In this document: positions 6,393 to 30,193 of the stretch, in pieces | Position numbering within the stretch: the first letter of the stretch is position 1 | How the letters are laid out: every line of letters starts with the position of its first letter | DNA from: an uncultured Eubacteriales bacterium | GTDB lineage: Bacteria > Bacillota > Clostridia > Oscillospirales > Acutalibacteraceae | DNA length: 64,000 bases | Assembly (NCBI GenBank): GCA_900317025.1 | Contig: ONFG01000004.1 | Location: 20,454 to 84,453, forward strand | Direction: 5' to 3' | The notes under the pieces: generated by a model | Databases searched by the model: none | The model's input: the letters and a program-made list of their open reading frames with translations, nothing else | Told to the model about the DNA's origin: nothing | Translations under genes and position numbers: made by a program

Positions 6393-7311
6393 CTGGACCG
6401 AAATAAAGATCAACGTGCCTAACGAGTACATAGACGCCGCCGGCGATATCGCCCAGATGGCGGTACCCTACGGCATCTATATCGAAGATTATTCGATGCT
6501 TGAACAGGAGGTCGAAGAGATCGCTCACATCGACCTTATCGACGAAGAGCTGCTTAAAAAAGACCGAACAAATGGCGTAGTCCACATCTACATAAGCCCG
6601 GAGGACAACCCGGGTGAGGCTGTGTCGTTCCTTAAAGAACGCTACACAAGCGAGCGTATACCATTTGAGATAGAGACCGCCGGCTGTGCCGAGGAAGACT
6701 GGCTCAACAACTGGAAGCAGTATTTCAACCCGATCGAGGTCGGCGAAAAGCTGCTTATCCGCCCGACGTGGCGCAGCGAGTACGACGCAAAGGGGAGAGC
6801 CATACTAAATCTCGACCCTGGCATCGCCTTCGGAACAGGCGCTCACGAAACGACCAGGCTCGTTCTCGGCGTTATCGAAAAGCTCGCAGGCCCCGGAAAG
6901 AATTTTCTCGACGTCGGCTGCGGCAGCGGCATTTTGTCTGCTGCGGCGCTTATTCTCGGCTGCGACGAAGCTTTCGGCGTAGATATAGACGAGATGGCTG
7001 TAAAAACAGCCTATGAAAACGCAGATCTAAACGGCGTTACAGACCGCTTTACGGCCGTATGCGGAAATCTCACCGACAAGGTGCAGGGGAAATACGATAT
7101 TATCGCGGCAAACATCGTTGCGGACGCTATCATCGCGCTTACCGCAGATATCGAAAAATTCATGAAGCCCGAGACCGTTTACGTAATGAGCGGCATCATC
7201 GACTCGCGCAGCGAGGAGGTCGAGGCCGCGGTATCCAAGCATCTCGAGATAACCGAAAAGTACGAAGATAACGGCTGGGTCTGCCTTACAGCAAAGCTTA
7301 GGAATGCTTAA
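6385..7311 (+). CDS. prmA: Ribosomal protein L11 methyltransferase
   Basis: 308 aa with PrmA-type motifs (FGTGAHETT, DVGCGSGILS). The start overlaps the hisS stop by 8 nt. Confidence 0.9.
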   Translation: MNDWTEIKINVPNEYIDAAGDIAQMAVPYGIYIEDYSMLEQEVEEIAHIDLIDEELLKKDRTNGVVHIYISPEDNPGEAVSFLKERYTSERIPFEIETAGCAEEDWLNNWKQYFNPIEVGEKLLIRPTWRSEYDAKGRAILNLDPGIAFGTGAHETTRLVLGVIEKLAGPGKNFLDVGCGSGILSAAALILGCDEAFGVDIDEMAVKTAYENADLNGVTDRFTAVCGNLTDKVQGKYDIIAANIVADAIIALTADIEKFMKPETVYVMSGIIDSRSEEVEAAVSKHLEITEKYEDNGWVCLTAKLRNA

Positions 7312-11937: not shown

Positions 11938-14900
11938 ATGGAATTTGTATTGACTTTGACTGTCATAGCCGTTATCGTTCTGGCGTTCTTCGTGATCAGT
12001 CTTCACTCAAAGAATAAACGTAACGAGGACGAGCTGAAAACAGTAAGAAATCAGCTTCGCGATCTCTACAACAAGTCGTTCTATATGTACGATATGATAA
12101 ACTCGATGGAGGCGCCGCCACAAAAGGCTCAAAAGACTTCTGAAGGACCCGCTCCCGAGGTCATATCAAAAAAGCCTCTTGCTTACCGGCAGGAAACAAA
12201 CAACGTTTCAACAGCTCAGCCCGCCGTTCATGCAGTCGAAGCTTCACCGAAGCCATCGCTTACGCTTGACAAAGAAAAGGCACAAGCGGCAGCCCCGGCT
12301 GCTCAGCCTGCAAATGTACAGACGGCAAGCGTTCAGCCTGTACAGCAGACAGTGGCAACCGATGAAAATGCTGCTTCCGCTGCCGCTCAAAGCAGCGCCG
12401 TGAGAGTAAATGTCCCGACTTCGCCTTCACAAACGAATATCCCGAAGCCTATCGCGCAGCCGGTTCGATATGGAGAGGATCTTTACCACAGCGAGAAGGC
12501 AAAGCTTTCGCAGCCGCAGAATAAGCGCCATATCGAAGAGTGGCTCGGAACGAGGCTTTTCAATATCGCCGCTTCTCTGCTCATATTTATAGGTCTTATA
12601 CTCTTCTGTACGCTCAGCACGGAAGAGGTAACAAATACAATGAAGATGGCGGCAATGTTTACCGTCAGCGGAGGCTTTATCTGCGCCGGCGCGTTCCTTT
12701 CCCGCAAGGATAAATCCATCTTCCCGCTCGGAATGCTCGGCTGCGGCTTCGGCGCATTCTTCATTTCGATACTTCTGTCTCACATCTACTTCCACTCTCT
12801 CGGCGATATAGCGGCATTCGGGCTTATTCTTGTGTGGTCGGCGTTAGCGCTGTTTATGTCAAAGAGGCTCAATTCCGTTATCCTGAGCGTTACGGCGCAC
12901 GTCGGCACGGCAGTTTCAATCTGCTTCGCCTTCACGCTCGGCTTTACTGCCGAAAGAGTGATACTGCTGACGATTTACCAGCTTGCGGCTATCGCCGTTA
13001 TCATCATCGGCAACATATTCTGCTGCCGCAAAACGTATCGCTTCGGCCTTATCATGTCGCAGTGCCTTCTCCTTTATACTTCTATTGCTATGAGCAGGGC
13101 TTTCAGCGAAAAGTTCATCATGCCTGAGTCTATTTCCGCTGCGTTTGGAATCACCATTTTTGCCGTTCAGTTTATCGCTGTAAGCTTTGTTTCTTATCTC
13201 GTTTCGACTTCCGCCGCAGCACTTGAAAAAGAAGGCTCCATGATCCGCGAGAACGCAAAGGATATCGAGGAGAAAAAAGACTTTAACAGTGCCTTCGGCT
13301 TGAAGAGAAACGCCGAAAAGCTCTTTATGGCGGCTTCTTCGGTCCATGTAGTGAACAAATTGCTCTGGGCGTTCGGCACGCTCTTCTCTGCCGGCAGCAT
13401 AACGCTCTTTGTCTCTCAAAACGTATACAATAAAGACGCGATACTTCCCACGACTATCGCTCTGTGTGCCGCAGCTATCCTGCACCTTGCGGTAACTCTC
13501 TTTTTGGAAGAGAAACTCAATTTCAGCGACCATCTGGCAACTCTTTCTATATGGTTCATCTCTACGATGATCGTAGTTTCTCTCTTTGTCGGAGCGTACA
13601 ATACAGGTCTTCCGTTTGCGTTCATTTACGCTATGCTTCTCATCGGCATCTTCAAGCTGACAAAGAACAAGGGCGTAACGCCGATCACCGCAGCTGTCCT
13701 CTTCGCCGAGGCAGTTTATATGAACGTCTACGGCTATTTTGAGGCAGAAAACGTCTGGGTAAGCATACCGTATATGTTCGCAATAGGCGTCGTTCTCCTG
13801 CTTCTCTGGTTCGTGCAAGGCGGCGAAGAAAAACAGCGCTACTTCAAGTACATGAAGATCTCGGAGTATCTCTGGATAAGCGCCTCTATCATATCTATCA
13901 ACGCAAGCGAATTCAGCGATATCTCTATCCCGCTTATAATCAGCGAATTCGCGTTGATGAATATTATCTGCTACTTCATCAGGTTCGGCGGAGAAAACGA
14001 GCCGGAGCTTAGATCGGTAGTAAAAGTCGAATCGCTTCTTACCGTATATGTCGGTATGCTCTCGCTCTCATTTGAAAACGCCGACGCGCTTGGCGATAAC
14101 AACATCATCAAGGCAGTTCTCATAGTTATGGTCGGTCTTATCACCGCCGTTTACGTTTACGACTTTGCAAAATCTAAATCGACGCTGCTGAGAGTAGTTT
14201 CCGCGCTTACTGTCTCACTGTACGTCACATTCTTTGCGATCGGCTTCTGTCAGCACTTTAAGCCGCTTTTTATCTATGCAAACACACTCGGCTGCCGCCC
14301 GTTGCTCTTTATCTTCTCGTCAGTCCTCCTGCTTATCTATTTCTTAACGAAAGACCGCAAGCTCACGACATTTATCTGGGTAGGAATCGTATTCGATATT
14401 CTGTCCATGGGCTTTGCCGGATACCAGGCTCTTGTAAAATACGCAACCGACGGCGACGGCAACACGCTGCCTCTTCATATGATCGTAACCGGCATATCGC
14501 TTGCCCACGCCGCCGCAATACTCGGGTTCTCGTTCCTTATGAATTCGATGGAAGCCGGCAGCGAGGATCTTCCGCGCTTCAAAAAAGACATATCGAGGTA
14601 TGTATCCTTCCTATGGATAAACCTTGCTTTCCCGACTATAACATACTGGGCGTTCTATAAAACGGCACTTACCGACTATAGATTTGATCTTGCAATGATC
14701 GTTCTCACCGCCGTCAATACTGCCGTATTCGCTCTTAAATATCAGGGCGATAAAGGGACTCCGTTCAATATGACGGTACGGGTCGTTTCGGCCTTAGCCT
14801 TCTACACGGCTCTCCCGACGCTCGCCGACGGCTCGTCCGAAACGAGCGGCTATGTAATCTGCGTAATACTTATGCTCTCGCTCGCGGCGCTGTTCTTCGT

Positions 14901-15582
14901 TAAAGCGCGTGAGATCATGTCGGGCAGTCATATGGTATGGGCGCAGGTATATATCGGCATCAATTCCACGATACTCGTCAACTGCTCGTGCAGCGGACTT
15001 TCAAGCAAATTTGACTTTGCCTACATATTCTCGATAGTTACGATGATAACTGCCCTTATCTGCATCATCGTGGGCTTCGTCGCAAAGGCAAAGGGACTAA
15101 GGATATACGGACTCGTAGTCGTCATGCTCTGCATAATCAAGCTCGTAACGATCGACATCAGCGGTGCAGACTCCGTTGCCAGAGTTCTCGCATTCATTGT
15201 CGGAGGCATTATCTGCTTCATTATAAGCGGTATCTACAATACGTTTGAAAAGCGTTTGAAAATAGTTGAGCAGCCTCAGCCCATTGCGGTAATGAACGGC
15301 TCAGGCGCTCCGGCACAAAGCTTTTCCCATACAAGCGCCCAGCCTATATATGATACAGCAACAGGGGAGATGTTCGGAAGTAACCCGCAGGCAGAAAACT
15401 CTTCGTCTCAAACACCTGCCCCCGAGATAACTCCCGAGCAGAAAACTGCCGAGCCTGTTATCGAATCAGCTACGGAAGCACCGACAAACGATTCACCCTC
15501 CGAGGTGAGCGATAAAACTGAGGATAAAACCGAAACATCAGACAACACCGAAAGCAAAGACAAAACAAAAGATCAGGAATAA
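11938..15582 (+). CDS. Giant polytopic membrane protein, DUF2339-like (1214 aa)
   Basis: N-terminal TM helix, then a charged helix, then a P/A/Q-rich linker of about 150 aa, then more than 25 hydrophobic helices, then an S/T/E/P/D-rich tail. This architecture and the segment HIEEWLGTRLFNIAASLLIFIGLILF resemble DUF2339 proteins (memory-based). Confidence 0.8.
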   Translation: MEFVLTLTVIAVIVLAFFVISLHSKNKRNEDELKTVRNQLRDLYNKSFYMYDMINSMEAPPQKAQKTSEGPAPEVISKKPLAYRQETNNVSTAQPAVHAVEASPKPSLTLDKEKAQAAAPAAQPANVQTASVQPVQQTVATDENAASAAAQSSAVRVNVPTSPSQTNIPKPIAQPVRYGEDLYHSEKAKLSQPQNKRHIEEWLGTRLFNIAASLLIFIGLILFCTLSTEEVTNTMKMAAMFTVSGGFICAGAFLSRKDKSIFPLGMLGCGFGAFFISILLSHIYFHSLGDIAAFGLILVWSALALFMSKRLNSVILSVTAHVGTAVSICFAFTLGFTAERVILLTIYQLAAIAVIIIGNIFCCRKTYRFGLIMSQCLLLYTSIAMSRAFSEKFIMPESISAAFGITIFAVQFIAVSFVSYLVSTSAAALEKEGSMIRENAKDIEEKKDFNSAFGLKRNAEKLFMAASSVHVVNKLLWAFGTLFSAGSITLFVSQNVYNKDAILPTTIALCAAAILHLAVTLFLEEKLNFSDHLATLSIWFISTMIVVSLFVGAYNTGLPFAFIYAMLLIGIFKLTKNKGVTPITAAVLFAEAVYMNVYGYFEAENVWVSIPYMFAIGVVLLLLWFVQGGEEKQRYFKYMKISEYLWISASIISINASEFSDISIPLIISEFALMNIICYFIRFGGENEPELRSVVKVESLLTVYVGMLSLSFENADALGDNNIIKAVLIVMVGLITAVYVYDFAKSKSTLLRVVSALTVSLYVTFFAIGFCQHFKPLFIYANTLGCRPLLFIFSSVLLLIYFLTKDRKLTTFIWVGIVFDILSMGFAGYQALVKYATDGDGNTLPLHMIVTGISLAHAAAILGFSFLMNSMEAGSEDLPRFKKDISRYVSFLWINLAFPTITYWAFYKTALTDYRFDLAMIVLTAVNTAVFALKYQGDKGTPFNMTVRVVSALAFYTALPTLADGSSETSGYVICVILMLSLAALFFVKAREIMSGSHMVWAQVYIGINSTILVNCSCSGLSSKFDFAYIFSIVTMITALICIIVGFVAKAKGLRIYGLVVVMLCIIKLVTIDISGADSVARVLAFIVGGIICFIISGIYNTFEKRLKIVEQPQPIAVMNGSGAPAQSFSHTSAQPIYDTATGEMFGSNPQAENSSSQTPAPEITPEQKTAEPVIESATEAPTNDSPSEVSDKTEDKTETSDNTESKDKTKDQE

Positions 15583-15887: not shown

Positions 15888-15925
15888 AGTGTTGTTGGAA
15901 AATTTCTTCCGAAAGGGTGTTTATA

Positions 15926-16621
15926 ATGAGTAAAAAAGCTGATCTGAAAAAGGACGTAAAAAAAGATAAGATCCCTATCCCGGATTACACAAAGGGCGAA
16001 GAGATATTTAATATGGTAACGCATATCGTCGGAGGAGCTATGGGTATCGCCGTGGCTGTGCTGTGCATCGTTTTTGCGGCGAAAAAGGGTAATCCCTACA
16101 GCGTTGTGAGCGCCGCCATCTTCGGCTCGATGATGATCGTGCTTTACAGTATGTCGAGCATTTACCACGGATTAAGCCCTAAGCTGAGAGCAAAGCGCGT
16201 TTTCCGTGTTCTGGATCACTGTACGATATTTTTGCTTATCGCCGGAACATATACGCCTATCGCTCTCTGCACGCTCAGAGAGTATAATACGGCACTCGGA
16301 TGGGTATATTTCGGGATCGTGTGGGGTCTTGCATCTCTCGGCGTTACGCTTACCGCAATAAACCTTGAAAAATTCAAGGTCCTCGGAATGATTTTTTACA
16401 TTGCGCTGGGCTGGTGTATCCTGCCCGTTTTGCCGAAGCTTCTGACGATAATGGGAAAAGGCGGCGTTATATTCCTCTTTCTCGGCGGAGTAAGCTACAC
16501 CGTCGGCGCAGTGCTTTACGGCGTGGGGAAGAAGAAGCGCTATATGCACTCCGTTTTTCACATCTTTATCGTGGTCGGAAGTCTGCTGCACTTCTTCTGC
16601 ATTCTGTTCTATGTGCTGTGA
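15926..16621 (+). CDS. Hemolysin III / PAQR family membrane protein
   Basis: ORF 15917..16621 with ATG at 15926 (SD AAAGGG). Seven TM segments with the SSIYH, LDHCTIFLLIAGTYTP and HIFIVVGSLLHF motifs typical of HlyIII/YplQ. Confidence 0.85.
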   Translation: MSKKADLKKDVKKDKIPIPDYTKGEEIFNMVTHIVGGAMGIAVAVLCIVFAAKKGNPYSVVSAAIFGSMMIVLYSMSSIYHGLSPKLRAKRVFRVLDHCTIFLLIAGTYTPIALCTLREYNTALGWVYFGIVWGLASLGVTLTAINLEKFKVLGMIFYIALGWCILPVLPKLLTIMGKGGVIFLFLGGVSYTVGAVLYGVGKKKRYMHSVFHIFIVVGSLLHFFCILFYVL

Positions 16622-17263: not shown

Positions 17264-19840
17264 TTATTCGTCCGTGTTTTCCACATCGTTTTGATCTTCT
17301 GTGGAGATCTCGCCGCTTTCCTCCGTATCGGCTGTGTCGGCGTTTTCGGGAATATCCTCGCCCTCGTCCTTATCCTCGTTCGGAGAACGCGCGATAGTCA
17401 CGACCTTAGCGCCCTCAGCAAGCTTCATTACGGTAACTCCCTTGCTCGGTCTTGCGCAAACTCTGATAGTCGAGGCTGCTATCCTAATGATCGTGCCGTT
17501 GTCGGCGATGAGAATGATATCATCGTCGGTGTCGACTACCTTGATTGCCGCAACATAACCGTATTTATCGACGTGGTAGTTAAGAAGACCCTTACCGCCC
17601 CTGTTTTGGATACGATAGTCGCTTATCGGGCTTAGTCTGCCGTAGCCTGTCTCGGATACGGTGAGAACGTAGCCGCTCTCTCTTAGCCTTGCCATACCGA
17701 CAACGCAGTCGCCCTCTGAAAGCTTCATTACATGAACGCCGCGGGCGTTTCTGCTCATGGCTCTGATGTCGTTTTCATTGAAGCGTATAGCATAGCCGTA
17801 CCTTGTAGCGACAATAAGCTCGTTGCTGCCGTTTGTAAGACGTACCCACGAAAGCTCGTCGCCCTCGTCGAGGTCGAGCGCGATAAGACCGCTCTTCCTG
17901 ATCGAACGGAACTGGCTGAGCTCAACGCGCTTAATGAAGCCTTTGTTCGTGACGAATACGATGTACTTGCCCTCTTCCGGCTCGTCTTGAGGAACCTTTA
18001 TCATCGCGCTGACGCGCTCACCCTCGTCAAGCTGGATAACGGAGTTGATCTTTTCGCCCTTTGCCGTTCTGCTTGCTTCGTGGATCTCGTAGCACTTGAT
18101 CCTGTATGCCTTGCCGTGGTTTGTGAAGAACATAACGTAATCGTGGCTGTTGATGACGAACATATCGACCGCGCCGTCGTCCTCACTCTTTGCGACGCCG
18201 GCGATACCTCTGCCGCCTCTACGCTGGAGCTTGTATGTATCGGCGTTAAGGCGCTTGATGTAACCCTGGTCCGTAAGCGTGAGCACGCACTCCTCGCGGG
18301 GGATAAGGTCTTCGATATCGACCTCGCCGCTGACGCTCATAATCTCCGTTCTGCGCTCGTCGCCGTACTTATTGCGGATCTCGGTCACCTCGTCTTTTAC
18401 GATGCCGAGCTTTCTCTCCTCGCTTGCAAGAATGTCATTAAGGTCGGCGATCTTTGCGTTGAGAGCTGCGATCTCGTCCTCGATCTTAGTCTGCTCGAGG
18501 TTTGTAAGCTGTGCAAGCCTCATGTTGACGATAGCCTGAGCCTGAACGTCGTCAAGCCCAAAGCGCTCGATAAGAGATGCCTTTGCGGAGGCGGGGTCCT
18601 TACTCGAGCGGATTATCCTTACGACCTCGTCGATGTTGTCGATGGCGATCTTCAAGCCCTCTAAGATATGGAGCCTATCCTGCGCCTTTTTAAGTTCAAA
18701 CAGAGAGCGCCTTGTAATGATCTCGACCTGGAAGTTGATGTACTGCTTCAGAATATCTTTAAGCTTCAGCACCTTCGGCTCGCCGTTTACGATAGCAAGC
18801 ATGATCGCGCCGAACGTTACCTGCATCTGCGTATATGTAAAAAGCTGATTGAGAATGACCTGAGCGTTGAATTCACGCTTTACGTCGATCTCAATATGCA
18901 TTCCGTTTCTGTCTGAATGGTCTTCGATATTTGAGATTCCCTCGATCTTCTTGTCGCGGACATACTCTGCGATCGTCTCGATAAGCTTCGCCTTGTTCAC
19001 CTGATATGGCAGTTCGCTTACGATGATCTTCGCTCTGCCGCTCTTCTCCTCGACGATCTCGGTTCTAGCTCTGACGGTTATCTTTCCTCTGCCCGTGGCG
19101 TAGGTGGCTCTTATGCCGCTTCTGCCCATGATAAGACCGCCTGTGGGGAAGTCGGGCCCCTTTATGAACTCCATGATCTCGTTAAGGCCGGAGTTCGGAT
19201 TCTCGTCGTTCAGAATATCTGGGTTATCTATAAGGTAGCAAATAGCGTCGATCGTCTCGCTAAGATTGTGCGGCGGGATATTCGTCGCCATACCTACGGC
19301 GATACCTGTACTGCCGTTTACGAGCAGATTCGGAAACCTTGTCGGAAGGACGGACGGCTCCTTTCTTGTGTCGTCGTAGTTCGAGGTGAAATCTACCGTA
19401 TCTTTGTCGATATCGCGGAGCATCTCAACGGATATCTTGCTCATTCTAGACTCGGTGTAACGGTAAGCAGCAGGCGGGTCGCCGTCGACGCTACCAAAGT
19501 TGCCGTGACCGTCGACAAGCGGATATCTCATGCTGAAATCCTGCGCAAGTCTTACGAGAGCGTCGTAAACGGATGCATCACCGTGGGGGTGGTACTTACC
19601 GAGCACGTCGCCGACGGTGGTAGCGCACTTCTTGTAGGGCGCAGTAGGAAGGATATTATTCTCGTATTTTGCGTACAGTATCCTTCTGTGAACCGGCTTC
19701 AAACCGTCTCTTACGTCGGGCAGCGCGCGGCTCACAATAACGGACATGGAGTAGTCAAGGAACGACTTCCGCATTTCCTTGTCCAAGTCTACATCTATGA
19801 TTCGGGATTCGGGAATACCCGGGTTAAATTCGTTATCCAT
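17264..19840 (-). CDS. gyrA: DNA gyrase subunit A
   Basis: 858 aa with [18 protein letters not shown], the active-site region [10 protein letters not shown]-terminal beta-pinwheel repeats and an acidic tail. Confidence 0.97.
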
Positions 19841-19879: not shown

Positions 19880-22035
<2,156 letters not shown>

Positions 22036-22143
22036 ATATTGCTTTTCCAATAAGTTCTTTCGGTGCTTACGCAATGCCTTTTGACGATCTCCGTTCTTAT
22101 AAGAAAAACGCGAAGCATCTCCGAAATTATTCAGTCTTCAGTA

Positions 22144-22557
22144 TTAATCAAACGTCGTTCCTTTGAGAGGGTTCTCGTCGAACTCGACTTCGTTGTACTT
22201 TGTCTTCTTATGCCTGCGGCGGTTTTTCTTTCGCTTCGGCTCAGGGTCGCGCTGACCCTCTATCTCAAAAAGCCTTACGTTAAGCGGTGTGAGCGCGAGA
22301 TAAATTATTATAACGCCCACCGTCAATATAATATTTGGCAAAAGCGTTTTATTATTCTCGCTGAAAAGCATAAGCGTATTCAGCGTTATCAGCAGTGCTG
22401 CAAATACGACAGCTAGCTTTACACAGCGTGCTCTGTATTTTACCTGTGAAAGCTTTCCGCACTTTCTGCATTTCATCGTCTTACCGCTCATTAAAGATGC
22501 ACTCGCCTTATATCCGAGTTTCTTTCCGCAGTAGGGGCATTCGGGCAGCTTGAACAT
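22144..22557 (-). CDS. Zinc-ribbon membrane protein (CPYC...CRKC, 2 TM, basic tail), uncharacterised
   Basis: 137 aa: MFKLPECPYCGKKLGYKASASLMSGKTMKCRKCGKLSQVKY, then two hydrophobic helices, then KRKKNRRRHKKTK. It is a paralog of the N-terminus of the upstream 962-aa protein. Confidence 0.8.
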   Translation of the reverse strand: MFKLPECPYCGKKLGYKASASLMSGKTMKCRKCGKLSQVKYRARCVKLAVVFAALLITLNTLMLFSENNKTLLPNIILTVGVIIIYLALTPLNVRLFEIEGQRDPEPKRKKNRRRHKKTKYNEVEFDENPLKGTTFD

Positions 22558-22586
22558 TTCAGATTTTTACCTTTCGTTTGACCGTA

Positions 22587-25475
22587 TCAGTGATTTTCGC
22601 CGAAGTATTCGTCAGCCTGACGCTTTATTTTTTTCTTCTTCTGCGAAACCTTAGAGCGGACGTTATCAGTCTCTTTCAAGCTTATACCCTTTGACTTGCG
22701 TTTTCCGCCCTCGTTGTTGATTTGATCCTGGCTGAGTCTTGCCTGCTTCATCTGCTCACGTCTGATTTGTTCTGCCTTATCGGCGTTGCTCTGGCGGCGC
22801 TGCTGCTCTGCCTTATTCCTTTCAGACTGAGCCTTTTTGCGCTCTATCTCGCTGAGCTTCTTTTCATTCTCTTCGCGGCGCTTCTCAGCGTCGGCTCTCT
22901 CTGCGATAATTTTCGCTTTATCCTGTGAGGTAAGCTTCTTCTGCGGCTCGCTTTCCATCTCAGCCTTTACTTTGTCGAAGATCTCCTTCTCGGCGGCTGC
23001 GTAGCTGTCCTGCTTGACCGGCTCAAAAACCTTTGTGTAGCTCTTTTTATCGGAGCTTTCGCTCGTCGCACCGCTTCTGCTCTTTCTTTCGGAACGCTCA
23101 GCTTTTACCGCGCTTTGAGGTGCGGTTTTTTTTTCCTTATCTCTAGCCCTGCGCCTTGCTTCCTTATCGGCAAGTCTGCGCTCGCGTTCTTCCTGTTCAA
23201 ACAGTTCCTGACGCTCGCTCTCTGTTGCCTCGATTATTCTTTTTTTAATTCTTCCGAAGAAGCCAAGCTCCTCGCTGCTCTTTTGAGTATTTTCTTTCTT
23301 TTCGGCATTACGCTGAGCTTCCTCACGTGCGCGGCGAAGTCTCTCTTCTGTCTGAGCCTTTCTTTTTTTCTCATTTTCTTCGGCTTCAGCGGCAGCAGCC
23401 TTTGCGGCGTTCGGGAATTTTTTCTCGTAGCGTGAAAGAGGCTGTTCCTCCTCCGGCTCGTCTATAACATCTTTGAGGTCTTCTTCCTCTTCGTCCTCGT
23501 TCTCTTCTTCCTCTTCTTTTTCGTCGCTGTTGCTCTCTATGTCTTCTTTGCTGTCTTCTTCGGGATCCACGTCGAACTCATCATCCTCTTCTTCATCGGA
23601 TGCTTCGTCGGCTCCCTCTTTGTAGCTGGAAGTCTGATACTCCGAAAGATCCAGCTCCTCCTGGAACGACTTTTCCTCGTCCTTTTCGCTGTCAGAGTAA
23701 TCTACGACAAAAGCTTCTTCTTCCACGGAGTCTTCAGCCTGATCTTCTTGTTCTTCCTCTGTATCTTCTTCGTTCTCTTCATCAAACAGATCGTCGATAT
23801 CCTCTTCGTCCTCATCGAGAGTATCGTCTTCTGCTTGAAATTCTTCCTCGCTGTCTTCGTCGTCGGGCTCGTCTGAATCGAATAATTCCTCCTTATCCTC
23901 CTCGCCGTCGTTTTCCACATCTTCCTCAACGAGTGTGAATGAAGGCTCGATCTCTTTTACGATTTCCTCTTTGATTTCCGCTTCAATCTCCGAATTCTCT
24001 TCCTTTTCGAGAGTAATCAAGCTTACTTCTTCGGTCTGCTCTTCAACGTCCTGCTCTGTCTCTTCGGAAGTTTCTTCCTCTTCGGGCTCCTCGGATTCCT
24101 CTTCATTTTCGGAAGGCTCGCCGAAGCTCATCATCTTGTCTATCTCTTCTTCGATCTGCTGCTCTGCAAGTCGAAGGTCGCCGATATCTTCGTCCTCATC
24201 TTCGCTCTTTTCAAGCTCCGGCTCTTTTTCTGCTGTTTCCGGCTCTTCATCCTCTGCTGCTTCCGGCTCTGCCTCAGCGGGTGCAGTTACTTCTTCTTCA
24301 GGCTTAGCTTTTTCTTCATCAAAAAAGCTTACGTGGATAACGCTGCTCTCGGGATAATACTCAAAAAGCTTGCTTTCCGCCTTTTCCGGCTCGTCAATCT
24401 CATCTTTCTTCTCCTCTTCAAAAACAGGTTCGGGGCCTTTTTCCGGCTCAAGCTCAGGCTTCACGCCGAACTCCTGTTCTTCCTCCTCGCTCGGAGCGGA
24501 ATCAAAGATATTCATGATCTCCTCGTCTTCCTTTTCGTCCTCCGTCGGTTCGGACTGCGCTGGTATCTCCTGCGTAAATATATCTACGTGAAGTTCTTCA
24601 AGCGTAACCGGGAAATAAACGAAATCCACCTCTGTGGTCTTTGTCATTTTATGGTAAACAGGCTCACGCACTTTAGCGGTTTTTACCTGCGGCTTATCCT
24701 CTTTTTCTTCGTGAGAGCTGCTGAAAATATCCTCGGCACTGCCGCTCTGCCTGTAGCTTTCGGTAAAGCCAAACTGATAGCTTACAGGCTCGTTTTCTTC
24801 CTCTTCTTTTGCGTCGATCTCGTCAAACTCTTCGTTTTTTGTCTCCGCTTCTTCTTCCTTGTCGGAGTAATCTCCCATAACACTCCATGAACGGTCTCTG
24901 TAATCGCTTTGAGTATCGCTTTCGTCTTCTTCATAAGAAGCAGGATCCTTCTTCGGCTCCTCATCGTCATCGTCTACGATAACATATGTCTTTATAAAGC
25001 TGTTGAATCTATCCTTGAATGAACCGCTTTTCTTTCCCATATTATTCAGCTCCTCTTGGCTGCTTTTCTTTTCTTCTCTCTTAACTTTTTCAGGCTCCGC
25101 TTTCTTCTTTTGTCGGGAGCTTTTGGGGCTTTTTTTCTTTTTTCCTGCTACCGGCGTTCGCGCTCGCTCTCCCTTTATGGGGTCCAGATAAAAATACAGC
25201 GGCGTTAAAAAGAAGAACACCGCGAACGGTATGAGCACTATCGCGCAGGCAAGGGCAAGATTCTTTATTATGTTCATCTTAAACAGAAGCGCTGCGGTGC
25301 CGACGGCTATCACAAGAATGATCGCCGTCGTGATATAGATCTTTCTGCTGTAGGAAATATTGGAATTCTTGTTGCAGTGGGGGCAGGTATGCTCGCCGCT
25401 GCTTATCTCGGACAAAGCCCCGAAATACGAGACCTCGCCTCCGCAATAAGGACACCTTCTAATGTTCTTGCCCAT
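22587..25475 (-). CDS. Zinc-ribbon membrane protein with giant polyacidic and ER/K-rich cytoplasmic tail (962 aa)
   Basis: ORF 22587..25499. ATG 25475 (MGKNIRRCPYCGGEV..., SD AAAGGGA) is preferred, and the TTG at 25499 forming TTGA with the remB stop is the alternative. Order of elements: CPYC/CPHC ribbon, 2 TM, KKKKSPKSSRQKKK, about 520 aa dominated by E/D, about 270 aa of E/R/K/Q-rich helix-like sequence, then a basic end. Confidence 0.85.
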   Translation of the reverse strand: MGKNIRRCPYCGGEVSYFGALSEISSGEHTCPHCNKNSNISYSRKIYITTAIILVIAVGTAALLFKMNIIKNLALACAIVLIPFAVFFFLTPLYFYLDPIKGERARTPVAGKKKKSPKSSRQKKKAEPEKVKREEKKSSQEELNNMGKKSGSFKDRFNSFIKTYVIVDDDDEEPKKDPASYEEDESDTQSDYRDRSWSVMGDYSDKEEEAETKNEEFDEIDAKEEEENEPVSYQFGFTESYRQSGSAEDIFSSSHEEKEDKPQVKTAKVREPVYHKMTKTTEVDFVYFPVTLEELHVDIFTQEIPAQSEPTEDEKEDEEIMNIFDSAPSEEEEQEFGVKPELEPEKGPEPVFEEEKKDEIDEPEKAESKLFEYYPESSVIHVSFFDEEKAKPEEEVTAPAEAEPEAAEDEEPETAEKEPELEKSEDEDEDIGDLRLAEQQIEEEIDKMMSFGEPSENEEESEEPEEEETSEETEQDVEEQTEEVSLITLEKEENSEIEAEIKEEIVKEIEPSFTLVEEDVENDGEEDKEELFDSDEPDDEDSEEEFQAEDDTLDEDEEDIDDLFDEENEEDTEEEQEDQAEDSVEEEAFVVDYSDSEKDEEKSFQEELDLSEYQTSSYKEGADEASDEEEDDEFDVDPEEDSKEDIESNSDEKEEEEENEDEEEEDLKDVIDEPEEEQPLSRYEKKFPNAAKAAAAEAEENEKKRKAQTEERLRRAREEAQRNAEKKENTQKSSEELGFFGRIKKRIIEATESERQELFEQEERERRLADKEARRRARDKEKKTAPQSAVKAERSERKSRSGATSESSDKKSYTKVFEPVKQDSYAAAEKEIFDKVKAEMESEPQKKLTSQDKAKIIAERADAEKRREENEKKLSEIERKKAQSERNKAEQQRRQSNADKAEQIRREQMKQARLSQDQINNEGGKRKSKGISLKETDNVRSKVSQKKKKIKRQADEYFGENH

Positions 25476-25495
25476 AACATTTTCCCTTTCGGATA

Positions 25496-25750
25496 TCAAT
25501 AATTTGAAGCGCAGCGTTTGAGAAGTGTCTGAGAAGACAGCTGGCTGATATAAATCTTTATCCCGCCATCTTCATACGCCGCAACAAACGACCTCGGCAG
25601 CTCATAAGAAACGGTAACCACCCGCCCCTCACGCTCTGCCAGTGCAAGGTAATTTCTCGTATTTTTTGATATGGTCGAGGTATCAAGATCAAATATCCCG
25701 ATTATCGAGGTCTTTAGTATCACGACGTCCGATCCAAGATGAAGATACAT
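25496..25750 (-). CDS. remB: DUF370 protein (RemB/YaaB-like)
   Basis: ORF 25496..25846 trimmed to ATG 25750 (MYLHLGSDVVILKTSIIGIFDLD...SQLSSQTLLKR) with GGGAGAGG upstream. The size (84 aa), the pattern and the position after recF match DUF370/RemB. Confidence 0.8.
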   Translation of the reverse strand: MYLHLGSDVVILKTSIIGIFDLDTSTISKNTRNYLALAEREGRVVTVSYELPRSFVAAYEDGGIKIYISQLSSQTLLKRCASNY

Positions 25751-26010
25751 AGCATAACCTCTCCCGATAAAATACACTTGAAAGCTCCTGTTTTTCGCCA
25801 GAATGCCCTGTAACGGTTTTTCGAGCATAAACTGCAGAAACTCCATTTTATATTATAACATATTTAAAGGGCTTTGTGGGCGATTCTACGAAATTTTTTT
25901 TGAAAATTTTTATATTTTTTCGAGTGAAAAACGGTTTAAAAAGATCGGATAAATATCTCTTGATAAAATAAACAAAAAGTACGCGATAAATTATGCATTA
26001 GTGACTACTA

Positions 26011-27120
26011 TCAAGCTTCTATCCTGCCGCCGTTTATCTTAAAAAGCTTACCGTCTTTAAGCCTTTCAACAGACGCCGCCTCACAGCACGTAATAAATAC
26101 CTGACGGTCGCCGATCTCGTTCAAAAGAAACTCCTGCCGCGTTGAATCAAGCTCACTCAAAACGTCGTCAAGAAGAACGAGAGGCTCCTCCGAAACAGAA
26201 AGCTTTATAAGCTCCTCCTCGGCTATCTTCATCGAGAGCACGCAGCTTCTCTGCTGCCCCTGCGACCCAAAGGTACGCACGCTCCCGCCGTTTATCGTTA
26301 TATCTATATCGTCCCTGTGAGGACCTATCGTCGTAAATCCCGCTGAAAGATCCTCCCGTCTGTTTTTCTGCATATAGTTGAGCATATAGTCGCGGGCACT
26401 GTCCGCCGACGCCCTGTATTCCTTTGGAATAGTGCTCGAGTATGATATCTCCAGCGCTTCACGCCCGTGAGATATCCCGTCGTGGTAACGGCTTGCACAT
26501 TCGCAAAGCCGCTCTACATATTTCATGCGTATCCTGACGATCCCCGCTCCAAGAGATGCAAGGCGAATATCCCACGCGTCAAGCGTATCGGCAAGCTCCG
26601 GATGAGCCGGGATATCCTTTAGCAGCGTGTTCCGCTGGGCAAGCGTTCGTTTGTACTCCGACAAAGCCTCCTTAAAGCTCGGCTTTATCTGGCAGACCGC
26701 GCCGTCGATAAAGCTTCGGCGCTCGGACGGACCGCTCTTCACAAGAGACAAATGCTCCGGAGAAAATACGACCGCGCAAAGCCTTCCGAGAAGCGCCGAG
26801 GTACTCGGCTGATTAACACCGTTTAAAAGTATCTCTTTTTTACCTTTTGCGTAAACGATCTCAGCCGACTGCTCTCTTCCTTCGGAGAAAAAATCGGCGT
26901 GAAGCTTAGCGTGATCGCTTCCGAAGCCAATAAGCTCGCTATCTTTAGCGCCGCGAAAGCTCCTGTTACCGCTTAAAAGCCAGATCGCTTCAACAAGGTT
27001 CGTTTTCCCCTGCGCATTCGTTCCGTAGATAACGTTCACGCCGGGGCAGGGGCGTATCTCGCTGTTTTCAAGGTTGCGAAAGCCCTCAAAGCGAAGCGAA
27101 GTCACCCTCATTTTGCGCAC
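26011..27120 (-). CDS. recF: DNA replication and repair protein RecF
   Basis: 369 aa with Walker [14 protein letters not shown], the signature region SQGQQRS and Walker [11 protein letters not shown]. Confidence 0.95.
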
Positions 27121-27323
27121 ACCTCAAGCACTATGCCGTTGCACTCGGCTTTGTCGCCCGGGCGCATTTTCTTGCCTCTCATAGTGCAGACCTCTCCGTT
27201 TACGAGAACTCCGCCGTTCTGAACGAGAAGCTTTGCCTGCCCGCCCGTGCCGAAGCCCGCTATTTTCAAAAGGCTGTCGAGCTTGATAAACTCTGTATCA
27301 ATATATATTTTTTCGGTCTTCAA
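27108..27323 (-). CDS. yaaA: S4-domain RNA-binding protein (YaaA/RlbA-like)
   Basis: 71 aa: [45 protein letters not shown] is an S4-like fold signature. It occupies the conserved slot between dnaN and recF. Confidence 0.85.
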
Positions 27324-27340
27324 ATTTATTCCACTCCTTA

Positions 27341-28435
27341 TCAGATCCTCATCGGAACGACCAGGATCAGGAAGCTGTCGCCGTTTACCGGTAGGATCTT
27401 GAGAGGTCTGTTAGGACCGTTGAACTCAAAGATAAGCTCGTCGGCGTCTACGTTTTTTACTGCGTCAAGCATATAGCGGTTATTAAAACCGATCTCGATC
27501 TCCTCGCCGTCAAAATCAAGGTTGATGTAGTCGCTCGCCTTACCAACTGCCGTCGTACAGAATATCTTGATTCCCTCGTCGGCAACGATAAGGTGAACGG
27601 GCTGCTGCATCTTGTCGCTTGTAAGAAGAGACATTCTCTCGACCGACGAGATGATCTTTCTAGTCTCGACCGTCAGAGTCGTTGCGCTGCCCTTCGGGAT
27701 AGTATCCTTATAGCTTACGTATTTGCCCTCGATGAGTCTCGAAACGACGGAGTAACCCTCGATCTTAAAGACTGCGTGCTTCTTTCCGACGACTACGGTA
27801 ACGGGGCTTTCGTCGTCACAGGTGATCTTTAGCAGCTCGCCGAGAGTCTTCTTTGGGAGTATGAATTCAAATTTTTTATCGGTGTCGATCTTTTCACGCC
27901 TTACCGACATTCTGAAGCCGTCTATAGACACGAGGTTGAGGTAACCGCCGTCAACGTCGAAGAGCGAGCCCATCAGAGCAGGCTTTGCGGGATTGTCACT
28001 GATAGCGTAGAACGTATCACGGATCATAGTCTTAAGTACTCCCGCCTCAATAGAGAACGTCTGAAGCGTATCGAAGCTCGGCAGCTCCGGATATTCATAA
28101 GATGAGATACCGATGATCTGATAGTCGGCTACGCCGGAATTCACATATGCAAGCAGCTTATCGTCCGTTTCGAGCGTGATGATCTCATCGGGCATACGCT
28201 TTACTATTTCTGAGAAAAGACGTGCACTGAGAACGATGTCGCCCTCTTCAACGACTGTTGCCGCGATCTCCGTTGTAATGCCGATATCAAGGTCATAACC
28301 GCAAAGAACTGCGGTAGAGCCGTGAGCTTTGATAAGTATACCCTCAAGAGAGGGATTGGAGCTTTTTGTCGATACGGCTCTCTGAACTGTCGTTACCGCA
28401 GAGACCAGCTCCGTCTGATTGAATACAGCCTTCAT
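27341..28435 (-). CDS. dnaN: DNA polymerase III beta sliding clamp
   Basis: ORF 27341..28591 trimmed to ATG 28435 ([37 protein letters not shown]...). This gives 364 aa, a typical clamp length, and the sequence ends ...LILVVPMRI. Confidence 0.93.
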
Positions 28436-28864
28436 GCTTTTGTTTCCTTTCATTTTTCTGTCAGAGCAATGATCTTGTTCGCATTTTTCGACCGAACGGG
28501 AGAAAAAGCGAAAATTTTCTATATGGGAGCGAAGCTCCTTAAATAATAGATAATAATATATAGTATATTTAGTAGTAGTAGTAGGGGGCAAGGAAAAGTG
28601 GAAATCACCAATGATCCCGCGCCATCAGCGGGAAAATCGTTCGTAACGTATTTTCACTTGTTTGAACATTCTTAACAGGTGAAAATGGAACTATGTGGAA
28701 TATGAGGAAAAGTCTATGTGGAATGTTATGGAAATGTTGATAACTCGATGCTTGTTCTTGCAACTTGAGTCGAACACTTTATGAATAAATTATGAACAAA
28801 AGGGCGTTTATTTTTCATAAATAATGAAAGAAACTTCTTTCATTATTACTCCCTGTAATCTTTG
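28436..28864. other. oriC segment (dnaA-dnaN spacer) with DnaA-box-like 9-mers
   Basis: TGTTGATAA at 28735-28743 has 1 mismatch to TGTGGATAA. The 11-mer CTATGTGGAAT repeats directly at 28691 and 28714, with boxes at 28694-28702 and 28717-28725. The context is AT-rich. The position is as in the bipartite oriC of Bacillus and Clostridia. Confidence 0.6.
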
Positions 28865-30193
28865 TTACATATCCTGTATATTCTTTATAATGTCTTCGAC
28901 TGTCTCTTTAAGACGAATATCCTTTTCGAGCTTCTTTTCCATTTCCTGATTTGTGTAGACGATGGTCGAGTAGTGTCTGCCGCCGAACTCCTCGCCGATA
29001 GCGGTCATTGAAAGACCTGTTACCTGGCGAACTATGTAAATAGCAACGTGTCTGGCATTGCTGAGGTTAGCGCGCCTGTTCTTGACAGAGCGGATATCCT
29101 CGGGGCTTACGCCGTAAGTTCTTGCGACCTCTTCGATTATCTTCTCTACTGTTACAGGGACGGGGACGTCGTTCGTCTGAACGTCGGAGATTACCTCCTG
29201 AGCAATCGCAATAGACGGCTTTTCTCCGTTGAGGTAGCTTTTCGCTTTTATCTTTTTTACGACGCCTTCGAGCTGGCGGACATTAGTCTTGAGCTTGTTT
29301 GCTATGTACTCACAGATGTCGTCGGGAATCTCAAAGTCGAGAGATTCCGCCTTGCTTTTGAGAATCGCTATCCTCGTTTCGATATCCGGCGGCTGAATGT
29401 CTGCGATAAGACCCCACTCAAAGCGGGTGCGAAGGCGCTCTTCGAGCGTCTTTATTTCCTTCGGCGGGCGGTCTGAGGTGAGGACTATCTGCTTCTTTGC
29501 TTCATAAAGAGCATTGAAGGTGTGGAAGAATTCCTCCTGAGTCGACTCCTTGCCTCCGATAAACTGAACGTCGTCGACGAGAAGAACGTCGGCGTTTCTA
29601 TATTTCTGTCGGAACTCCGCTTGATTTACGTGACGCAGAGAATCTACGATCTCGTTTGTGAAGTCGTCACCTTTAACGTATGCGATCTTCATGTCGGGAT
29701 CGTTGCTCAGAACCTCGTTGCGGATAGCGTGAAGAAGGTGAGTTTTTCCGAGACCTGAGTTACCGTAGATGAAAAGCGGGTTGTATGCGCCGCCGGGATT
29801 CTGTGCAACCGCGAGAGACGCTGCGTGAGCAAATTTATTTGAAGAGCCTACGATGTAGTTATCGAAGGTTAGCGGCGCATCGTCGTCGTCCGAGCGTTCG
29901 TTTTCATCTGCCTTTGATTCGGGAAGCTCGACCTCCTCGGGGATGACGAGCTTTATGTCAAAGGTCTGACCGAATATCTCGGCGAAAGCGTCTCTTATTA
30001 ATGAAAGGTAACAGCGTGTTACCGTTTCGCGGTGGAATGCATTCGGCACGAGCAGCTTGATCTGATAAATGCCGAAATCGATATCCTGCGGCTCAATACG
30101 GCTGATCCACGTCTGAAAAGCCACCTTTGTGATCCTTTGCTTGCAGTAGTCGCAAACAAGCGGCCATGTTTCATTAAATGAATCCATAGTCAA
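28865..30193 (-). CDS. dnaA: Chromosomal replication initiator protein DnaA
   Basis: 442 aa with AAA+ Walker A GNSGLGKTHLLHA, Walker B LLVDDVQF and a C-terminal DNA-binding domain (..RHVAIYIVRQVTGLS...IGEEFGGRHYSTIVY). TTG 30193 and ATG 30187 are both candidate starts. Confidence 0.97.
   Translation of the reverse strand: MTMDSFNETWPLVCDYCKQRITKVAFQTWISRIEPQDIDFGIYQIKLLVPNAFHRETVTRCYLSLIRDAFAEIFGQTFDIKLVIPEEVELPESKADENERSDDDDAPLTFDNYIVGSSNKFAHAASLAVAQNPGGAYNPLFIYGNSGLGKTHLLHAIRNEVLSNDPDMKIAYVKGDDFTNEIVDSLRHVNQAEFRQKYRNADVLLVDDVQFIGGKESTQEEFFHTFNALYEAKKQIVLTSDRPPKEIKTLEERLRTRFEWGLIADIQPPDIETRIAILKSKAESLDFEIPDDICEYIANKLKTNVRQLEGVVKKIKAKSYLNGEKPSIAIAQEVISDVQTNDVPVPVTVEKIIEEVARTYGVSPEDIRSVKNRRANLSNARHVAIYIVRQVTGLSMTAIGEEFGGRHYSTIVYTNQEMEKKLEKDIRLKETVEDIIKNIQDM

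Follow-up and report, generated by a model that had tools for sequence, protein, structure and literature searches.

A conserved zinc-ribbon membrane-protein gene between remB and gyrB in the origin cluster of Oscillospiraceae-type Clostridia and its long polyacidic, ER/K-type tail in a rumen/gut clade

INTRODUCTION

The block of genes that runs from dnaA to gyrA is among the most conserved gene neighborhoods in Firmicutes. In a 64,000-nucleotide (nt) stretch of DNA from an uncultured Eubacteriales bacterium of the Acutalibacteraceae (GenBank assembly GCA_900317025.1, contig ONFG01000004.1, positions 20,454 to 84,453 of the forward strand; the whole stretch is called the window below), two further genes stand in this block between remB and gyrB. 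Both are predicted to encode a zinc ribbon followed by two transmembrane (TM) helices, and the protein of the larger one continues into a polyacidic and charged-helical tail. The original prediction, made from the letters of the window, regarded the two genes as an insertion and placed them, speculatively, in the service of the neighboring gyrase genes. The locus therefore raises the question of whether such genes belong to the cluster at all and, if they do, with which of their neighbors they are most closely linked.

RESULTS

The type A gene is a fixed component of the cluster

The part of the window in question is arranged as follows.

22587-25475, minus strand: large "type A" zinc-ribbon/two-TM gene, 962 amino acids (aa) from the ATG, 20 nt past the remB stop
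22587-25499, minus strand: the same gene as called mechanically, with a TTG start at 25499
22144-22557, minus strand: small "type B" zinc-ribbon/two-TM gene, 137 aa, starting 29 nt past the large-gene stop
25496-25750, minus strand: remB (RemA-like, DUF370; NCBIfam NF046065 MtxRegRemB, 56.7 bits against a cutoff of 40)
21824-22143, minus strand: spacer before gyrB, 320 nt, with three to four imperfect direct repeats of a unit of about 57-76 nt
19880-21823, minus strand: gyrB, start at about 21823 (MESSENT); the mechanical open reading frame (ORF) is over-extended across 21824-21904

The close homologs all lie in the order recF-remB-large-small-gyrB, in six metagenome contexts as well as in eight GTDB genomes (L011-L018), the GTDB carriers being RUG metagenome-assembled genomes (MAGs) named "uncultured Ruminococcus sp.", Clostridiales RUG777 and RUG322, Acutalibacteraceae fecal_MAG_43, and Clostridia RGIG1247. 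Distant members of both types occupy the same remB-gyrB position, namely, P0044 and P0070 (type A, 167 and 255 aa) and P0075 and P0127 (type B, 100 and 104 aa). Metagenome contigs were surveyed more broadly with a hand-made DNA pattern, which describes CPYC-x15-GE[H/Y]xC only and is blind to genomic context; of the 120 loci returned, 114 held a family ORF. The gene directly upstream is remB in 96 of 102 testable loci (about 94%), and gyrB lies downstream in 60 of 62; counted over the 49 clusters formed at 70% identity, the figures are 42 of 45 and 19 of 23, respectively. The apparent exceptions to remB linkage (L074, L101, L132, L049, L107/L140, L023, and L070) proved on inspection to be unrelated zinc ribbons, truncated or chimeric contigs, ORF-calling artifacts, or weak hits. 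Type A stands alone at 60 loci and is followed by type B at 22, one further locus being scored as A-A; type B follows A in about a quarter of the loci, and the order B-A was not seen among those surveyed. Named carriers include Hominenteromicrobium (a 1682-member cluster), [Clostridium] leptum, Ruminococcoides intestinihominis, and Ruminococcaceae/Oscillospiraceae MAGs.

The synteny survey identifies type A as a conserved cluster component and not a local insertion: it is a fixed part of dnaA-dnaN-yaaA-recF-remB-[A(-B)]-gyrB-gyrA in Oscillospiraceae-type Clostridia. The location between remB and gyrB had thus been read correctly, whereas the notion of an insertion specific to this genome gives way to conservation across these Clostridia. 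A scattering of homologs away from the origin had been named beforehand as the outcome that would speak against origin linkage; nearly all members found are located between remB and gyrB.

A mobile-element origin was considered and rejected, as the module has no match among plasmids and the single "phage" match is a misfiled bacterial origin contig. The latter, L147 (MT836192.1, "UNVERIFIED: Bacteriophage sp."), reads dnaA-S4-recF-remB-zinc-ribbon/two-TM gene-gyrB-gyrA.

The gene pair is packaged with remB

The large gene almost certainly starts at the ATG at 25475 and not at the TTG at 25499, since its homologs all begin at the position equivalent to this ATG (MGKNIRRCPYC) and a purine-rich GAAAGGGAAAA stands immediately 5' of it; the overlap with the remB stop that a TTG start had suggested is not retained. 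The true start of remB is M33 of the listed ORF (at 25750, MYLHLG), the mechanical ORF being over-extended across 25751-25846, and remB homologs are 82-86 aa long and begin MYLHLG.

Between the remB stop and the A start the median distance is 18 nt, with seven cases of a 4-nt overlap, and between the A stop and the B start it is 9 nt, whereas gyrB follows at a median of 369 nt from A where B is missing and of 168 nt from B. In the window, the corresponding gaps are 20 nt (remB-A), 29 nt (A-B), and 320 nt (B-gyrB). A short gap to remB and a long one to gyrB indicate that the pair is packaged with remB (and recF), and the spacing thus runs counter to the gyrase-centered placement of the original prediction.

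The spacer before gyrB has features of its own: 21936-21970 and 22001-22035 are 86% identical, and a 27-nt family is present in four copies, starting at 21833, 21890, 21966, and 22056. These repeats may serve gyrB as a leader or promoter element. Rfam has no match in the window, this spacer included.

Both proteins belong to a divergent branch of a named family

Profile searches with both proteins led to NCBIfam TIGR04104 (cxxc_20_cxxc, "CXXC-20-CXXC protein"), whose cutoff is 45 bits; the small protein scores 37.9 bits and the large one 25.3 bits over its full length or 31 bits with the N-terminal module alone. The matches have E values of 1e-5 to 1e-9 and span profile positions 2-86/90 of 93, and the model matches 87 of 89 family members at E<=1e-3. 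Since the matches are significant but sub-threshold, the window proteins appear to form a divergent branch of TIGR04104, and we assign the two genes, on sequence grounds, as a type A/type B pair of a TIGR04104-related family. The type A signature is CPYCGK..SY...GE[HY]xC..SNI, with a tail of 0 to about 1200 aa, and that of type B is MFKLPxCPYC...Y.Y...C.HCKK.F.V, with a short basic tail.

The window proteins share with TIGR04104 a CxxC-about 20-CxxC ribbon followed by two TM helices. They differ in that the large protein adds an 850-aa tail to a model of 93 positions, and neither the near-obligate remB-gyrB position nor the A/B pairing is described in the literature as far as it was searched. 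The suspicion that the family might be undescribed holds in part: the N-terminal module already has a model and a name, while the searched literature yielded no function for, and nothing on, TIGR04104. In public databases the relatives are called "hypothetical protein" or "CXXC-20-CXXC protein"; the 126-aa member P0215 wrongly bears the name "DNA-directed RNA polymerase subunit RPC12/RpoP" because of its zinc ribbon.

Pfam holds no model for the module, and the window proteins and the 89 members gave only sub-threshold matches to generic zinc ribbons. Membrane zinc ribbons of the LITAF-like (PF10601) and TMEM55 (PF09788) types were rejected, with scores below gathering (12.1 versus 23.8 bits and 13.8 versus 30 bits, respectively). 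Sequence searches of PDB found no relatives, and the best Foldseek match against PDB had an E value of 3. A profile search over 1.84 billion representatives returned 501 clusters at E<=1e-3, 154 of them at E<=1e-10; a word-indexed protein search with the N-terminal module of the large protein returned only 2 fragments, and a query built from a diverse alignment was swamped by low-complexity candidates.

A cytoplasmic zinc ribbon on a membrane hairpin

Residues of the large protein are numbered below in the 962-aa form from ATG 25475. Its N-terminal module comprises the following.

25350-25463, minus strand: C4 zinc ribbon, residues about 5-42 (C8, C11, C31, and C34; CxxC-x19-CxxC)
25194-25346, minus strand: two-helix TM hairpin, residues 44-66 and 73-94 (helices predicted by AlphaFold2 [AF2])

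The two ORFs are present on the minus strand as originally described, and their paralogy is real, since the N-terminal modules align by BLASTP at 30% identity over 106 aa (E=5e-12). The peptides quoted at the outset are found in them (CPYCGKKLGY..., CPYCGGEVSY..., LTPLNVRLFEIEG, LTPLYFYLDPIKG, and the KRKKNRRRHKKTK tail). The four zinc-ribbon cysteines are invariant in 89 sequences, and the CxxC-x19-CxxC spacing is kept in nearly all of 165 proteins. The tail of the small type B protein is conserved as well, reading K(L/R)KKNRHRHKKTK...FDENPLKGTSFD (consensus form KxKKNRxRHKKTK...FDENPLKGTxFD).

The structure prediction that had been suggested for the module gave a confident ribbon-hairpin fold, alongside the sub-cutoff TIGR04104 match. 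With 89 family sequences as input, AF2 models the module alone at a predicted local distance difference test score (pLDDT) of 88 and a predicted TM-score (pTM) of 0.70; the ribbon forms beta strands (pLDDT of about 90), and the TM helices follow it directly (residues 45-66 and 73-94 in this model; pLDDT >90). The full-length prediction has the same ribbon strands and TM helices in residues 1-108 at a pLDDT of 71-85. In the AF2 model, a short strand after the second TM helix (residues 95-99) pairs with the ribbon, and 97 of 118 family members have a basic juxtamembrane segment; on these grounds, ribbon and tail alike are predicted to lie on the cytoplasmic side of the membrane, in line with the topology first proposed. 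Each protein is accordingly modeled as a cytoplasmic C4 zinc ribbon clamped on a two-helix membrane hairpin and followed by a cytoplasmic tail.

Anatomy and conservation of the long tail

The tail of the large protein can be divided into three parts.

24960-25151, minus strand: basic juxtamembrane patch and conserved motif SFKDRFNSFIKTYVIVDDDD, residues 109-172
23436-24959, minus strand: polyacidic, mostly disordered region, residues 173-680
22590-23435, minus strand: ER/K-type long-helix region and basic C-terminal end, residues 681-962

The first part is basic (net +12 over residues 109-164), and in its motif S152, F153, K154, F157, F160, K162, T163, Y164, I166, V167, D168, and D169 are invariant in six syntenic homologs. 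Of the 516 residues in 165-680, 227 are acidic and 38 are basic (44% acidic; net charge about -189). The AF2 model is mostly disordered over residues 109-680, with a pLDDT below 50 in the acidic region except for short helices at 312-336 and 433-449. Conserved islands interrupt the acidic region, namely, PVYHKMTKTTEVDF, EEIMNIFDSAPSEEEEQEFG, LFEYYPE, LAEQQIEEEIDKMM, FVVDYS, and LDLSEYQTSSY. The last part (58 acidic and 79 basic residues) holds the conserved SRYEKKFPNAAKAAA, GFFGRIKKRIIEATESERQELFEQEERERR, and SLKETDNVRSKVSQKKKK. The succession of basic patch, acidic region, charged helices, and basic end is thus as originally described; the wording "mostly E/D" overstated the acidity.

Three long helices are predicted in the last part (residues 688-734, 752-800, and 850-922; pLDDT 62-92), with 49-61% charged and 2-11% hydrophobic residues, 10-14 i/i+4 opposite-charge pairs each, and a heptad a/d occupancy of 0.07-0.25. 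Of the two forms initially offered, single alpha-helix or coiled coil, the helices resemble the former, of the ER/K type, rather than the latter. Domains of this kind occur in myosin VI/X and caldesmon. The window helices resemble them in length (47-73 residues), in E/K/R content (about 50-60%), in their many i/i+4 pairs and almost absent hydrophobic seam, and in being predicted by AF2 as isolated long helices; they differ in being bacterial, membrane tethered, and placed after a polyacidic disordered region.

Conservation of this tail within its clade, in presence and in layout, is extensive. Six syntenic homologs that share 37-56% identity with the window protein keep the islands in order: first SFKDKFNKFIKTYIIVDDDD, PVYHKMTKTTEVDF, EEIMxFFDSAPSEEEExEFG, LFEYxPE, LAEEQIAKDLDxMMSF, EGAVEYxP, and FVVDYS, and then LDLSEYKTSNY, SRYEKKFPNAAKAAA, GFFxKIKxRIIEATESERxELFEQEERERR, KITxQDKxKIIAER, KAEQIRREQ, and SLKETxxVRSKVSQKKKK. 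Many aromatic residues of the tail are invariant among these homologs, and their 50-residue charge profiles are superimposable; over a wider range of 35-56% identity, homologs retain the charge layout. The syntenic full-length homologs have 939-1047 aa, and 15 further long forms of 573-1309 aa, obtained by deep profile search, retain the tail islands. The ratio of nonsynonymous to synonymous substitution rates (dN/dS) is 0.08 in the N-terminal module and stands at 0.17 and 0.16 in the acidic and C-terminal regions, respectively, values that rest on one close pair (L001/L003), dS being saturated in other pairs. By these values the long tail appears to be under purifying selection.

One can nevertheless argue that only the zinc-ribbon/two-TM module matters, for example, in a structural or assembly role, and that the giant tail is a tolerated low-complexity expansion. 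Members of the family have tails of between 0 and about 1200 aa, the motifs of the long tails are clade specific, and the acidic region is rich in indels, with 73-203 gap columns between relatives. Recent tandem acidic repeats in the long-form homologs P0021 and P0025 (e.g., EDEPISEKDEEYYRFEEEDEQEVTA five times and EEDDDYYIFDEEDDEEVS three to four times) show that repeat expansion enlarges the acidic region; the only DNA repeats in the window copy are weak. On the other hand, more than 10 ordered islands and the charge layout are kept in homologs of 730-1310 aa, and dN/dS is low in both the acidic and the helical part (about 0.17 and 0.16), which disfavors an inert tail, as does the prediction of ER/K helices with a pLDDT of up to 92. 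We regard this explanation as unlikely.

The repetitive nature of the acidic region also touches on gene calling. In L007 a run of N at 6567-6700, a scaffold gap within the repetitive acidic region, splits the large gene into three ORFs, and long-tail genes are likely under-called or fragmented in MAGs. The exact large protein of the window is absent from a collection of 15 billion proteins.

Variation of the tail across the family and a short shared motif

Type A tails are bimodal in length, between 0 and about 1200 aa; most are shorter than 300 aa and of mixed net charge. Net charge is negative in every one of the 13 non-redundant tails that reach 468 aa or more, the median being -115. The expanded tail (about 470-1200 aa) is confined to one rumen/gut clade, and the 850-aa combination of polyacidic and ER/K sequence in the window is a new architectural variant. 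Hidden Markov models (HMMs) of the long-tail islands found no match in the short forms. Since the giant acidic tail is missing from most members, a family-wide function cannot depend on it.

One short motif, D[LIFV]S[ELKQ][FYL], is common to long and short tails, and the window has a copy.

23637-23651, minus strand: DLSEY, a copy of the motif, residues 609-613

The motif is present in 18 of 109 non-redundant type A tails, compared with 0.8 expected from shuffles, and is often found at the extreme C terminus; its copies include LDLSEY in the window and DFLDISELNL-COOH, YDLSLFE-COOH, and YDFSLFEE in short forms. The beta-clamp-binding consensus is QL[SD]LF, which the motif resembles, making it a candidate lead. 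Type A proteins might then be replisome or sliding-clamp tethers, in which the motif (in the form D[LIF]S[EL][FY]) would act as a beta-clamp-binding-like peptide that brings DnaN, or some other replication or repair protein from the cluster, to the membrane. The enrichment, the frequent terminal placement, and the presence of dnaN and recF in the same cluster would fit, but only about 17% of non-redundant tails carry the motif, and the window copy, LDLSEY, has Glu where a hydrophobic residue is needed and lacks the Gln; we consider such a tether distinctly improbable.

The rest of the cluster and its surroundings

The other genes of the block in the window are these.

28865-30193, minus strand: dnaA
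ending at 27341, minus strand: dnaN, start MKAVFNQ by homologs; the mechanical ORF is over-extended 5' across 28441-28591
27108-27323, minus strand: yaaA (S4-domain gene)
26011-27120, minus strand: recF
17264-19840, minus strand: gyrA

The cumulative GC skew has its minimum at about 26-28 kb and rises after it (about 26000-30000 in the window), and rnpA-yidD-yidC diverge on the plus strand near dnaA/dnaN; the minimum and the divergent genes are consistent with a replication origin adjoining dnaA/dnaN. A 143-aa 4HBT thioesterase gene lies between gyrB and gyrA in L022 (7655-8086) and L143 (7404-7835) and is another lineage-specific addition to the "invariant" cluster. Downstream of gyrA, the window encodes a 1214-aa multi-TM protein with low-complexity ends (11938-15582, plus strand), adjoined by an HlyIII-family gene (15917-16621, plus strand). 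These two genes recur downstream of gyrA in L005 and L009, where the counterpart of the 1214-aa protein by position is annotated DUF2339 in L005 and has no recorded Pfam hit in L009.

DISCUSSION

What the type A protein does next to remB can be approached through its architecture and its neighbors, the descriptive parts of our account being far more secure than the assignment of a partner. As a tentative reading, which we hold to be possible but somewhat short of an even chance, we propose that the protein is a cytoplasmic scaffold, anchored in the membrane, to which a soluble partner, most probably RemB, would bind. The scaffold would work in the following steps: (i) the zinc-ribbon face and short tail motifs would bind one or more soluble partners; (ii) the most probable partner would be the co-encoded RemB, which, as the operon neighbor of the pair, is the most economical candidate, with replication or nucleoid proteins as the alternative; (iii) binding would hold or sequester the partner at the membrane; and (iv) in proteins with the long tail, disordered acidic sequence and stiff ER/K helices would together make up a long, nucleoid-repelling spacer or brush that presents the tail motifs far from the membrane.

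Hubs of the ZipA type are anchored in the membrane, extend into the cytoplasm as a long, charged, disordered linker, and carry short conserved binding motifs. The window protein likewise has an anchor, a charged disordered linker, and short conserved motifs; it differs in showing no homology, in using a zinc ribbon with a hairpin as its anchor, and in its extreme acidity.

RemB itself was reportedly discovered in 2009 by Winkelman et al., and its role is said to have been unclear since. Its paralog RemA binds DNA and activates transcription (PMC8481266). To the RemA/RemB family (PF04025) the zinc-ribbon proteins are related as genomic partners only, being unrelated in sequence.

Several points weigh against a RemB-binding scaffold: (i) the dnaA-gyrA cluster is itself very stable, so that, within one family-level clade, the position may have been conserved through inherited synteny and is, by itself, no proof of functional coupling; (ii) the partner is inferred from gene order only, and scans for promoters and terminators stayed at chance level and are uninformative; (iii) the function of RemB is itself little known (PMC8481266); (iv) among short members, tails differ widely in both charge and sequence, and the motifs of the long tails go undetected there by HMM, which argues against any single tail-based mechanism for the whole family; and (v) dS near saturation limits the test for selection.

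A more specific version would make type A the functional partner of RemB as a membrane anti-activator or tether that captures this RemA-like DNA-wrapping protein, with the long tail serving as a DNA decoy. We regard this version as unlikely.

The idea from which the original prediction started, a gyrase regulator or DNA mimic whose ribbon, polyanionic tail, or both would bind GyrB/GyrA and tune or sequester gyrase at the membrane, has in its favor that essentially all loci have gyrB as their next downstream gene, that the 516-aa region, predicted to be disordered, has a net charge of about -189, and that known gyrase inhibitors include negatively charged ones as well as the zinc-finger protein YacG, which acts on GyrB/GyrA through Trp insertion and a C-terminal tail (PMC10886550). 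The likeness to YacG extends to a small C4 zinc-binding module encoded beside the gyrase genes, but it finds no support in sequence: neither the window proteins (Pfam, E<=1) nor the 89 members match PF03884, and hhalign against a hand-entered YacG sequence aligned 16 columns at the first CxxC knuckle with a probability of 27%. YacG, moreover, is soluble, has 65 aa, and is proteobacterial (PMC10886550), and it has no TM hairpin, unlike the window proteins. As there is no YacG homology, as YacG is soluble and small, and as most members are without an acidic tail, some tails even being net basic, we rate this explanation as very unlikely, the more so since the pair abuts remB and a long spacer precedes gyrB. 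A role as DNA mimic or nucleoid tether stays speculative.

To conclude, an extra membrane zinc-ribbon gene beside remB in a major gut and rumen family offers a concrete handle on RemB, and cultured human-gut carriers (Hominenteromicrobium, [Clostridium] leptum, and Ruminococcoides) make experiments feasible. The long form, with its conserved short motifs, is an unusually clear bacterial case of an anchor, polyacidic disorder, and an ER/K rod in one protein and may become a model for bacterial disordered scaffolds. If the capture of RemB is true, it would couple the organization of nucleoid or origin-proximal DNA, or the control of matrix and sporulation genes, to the membrane across the Oscillospiraceae.

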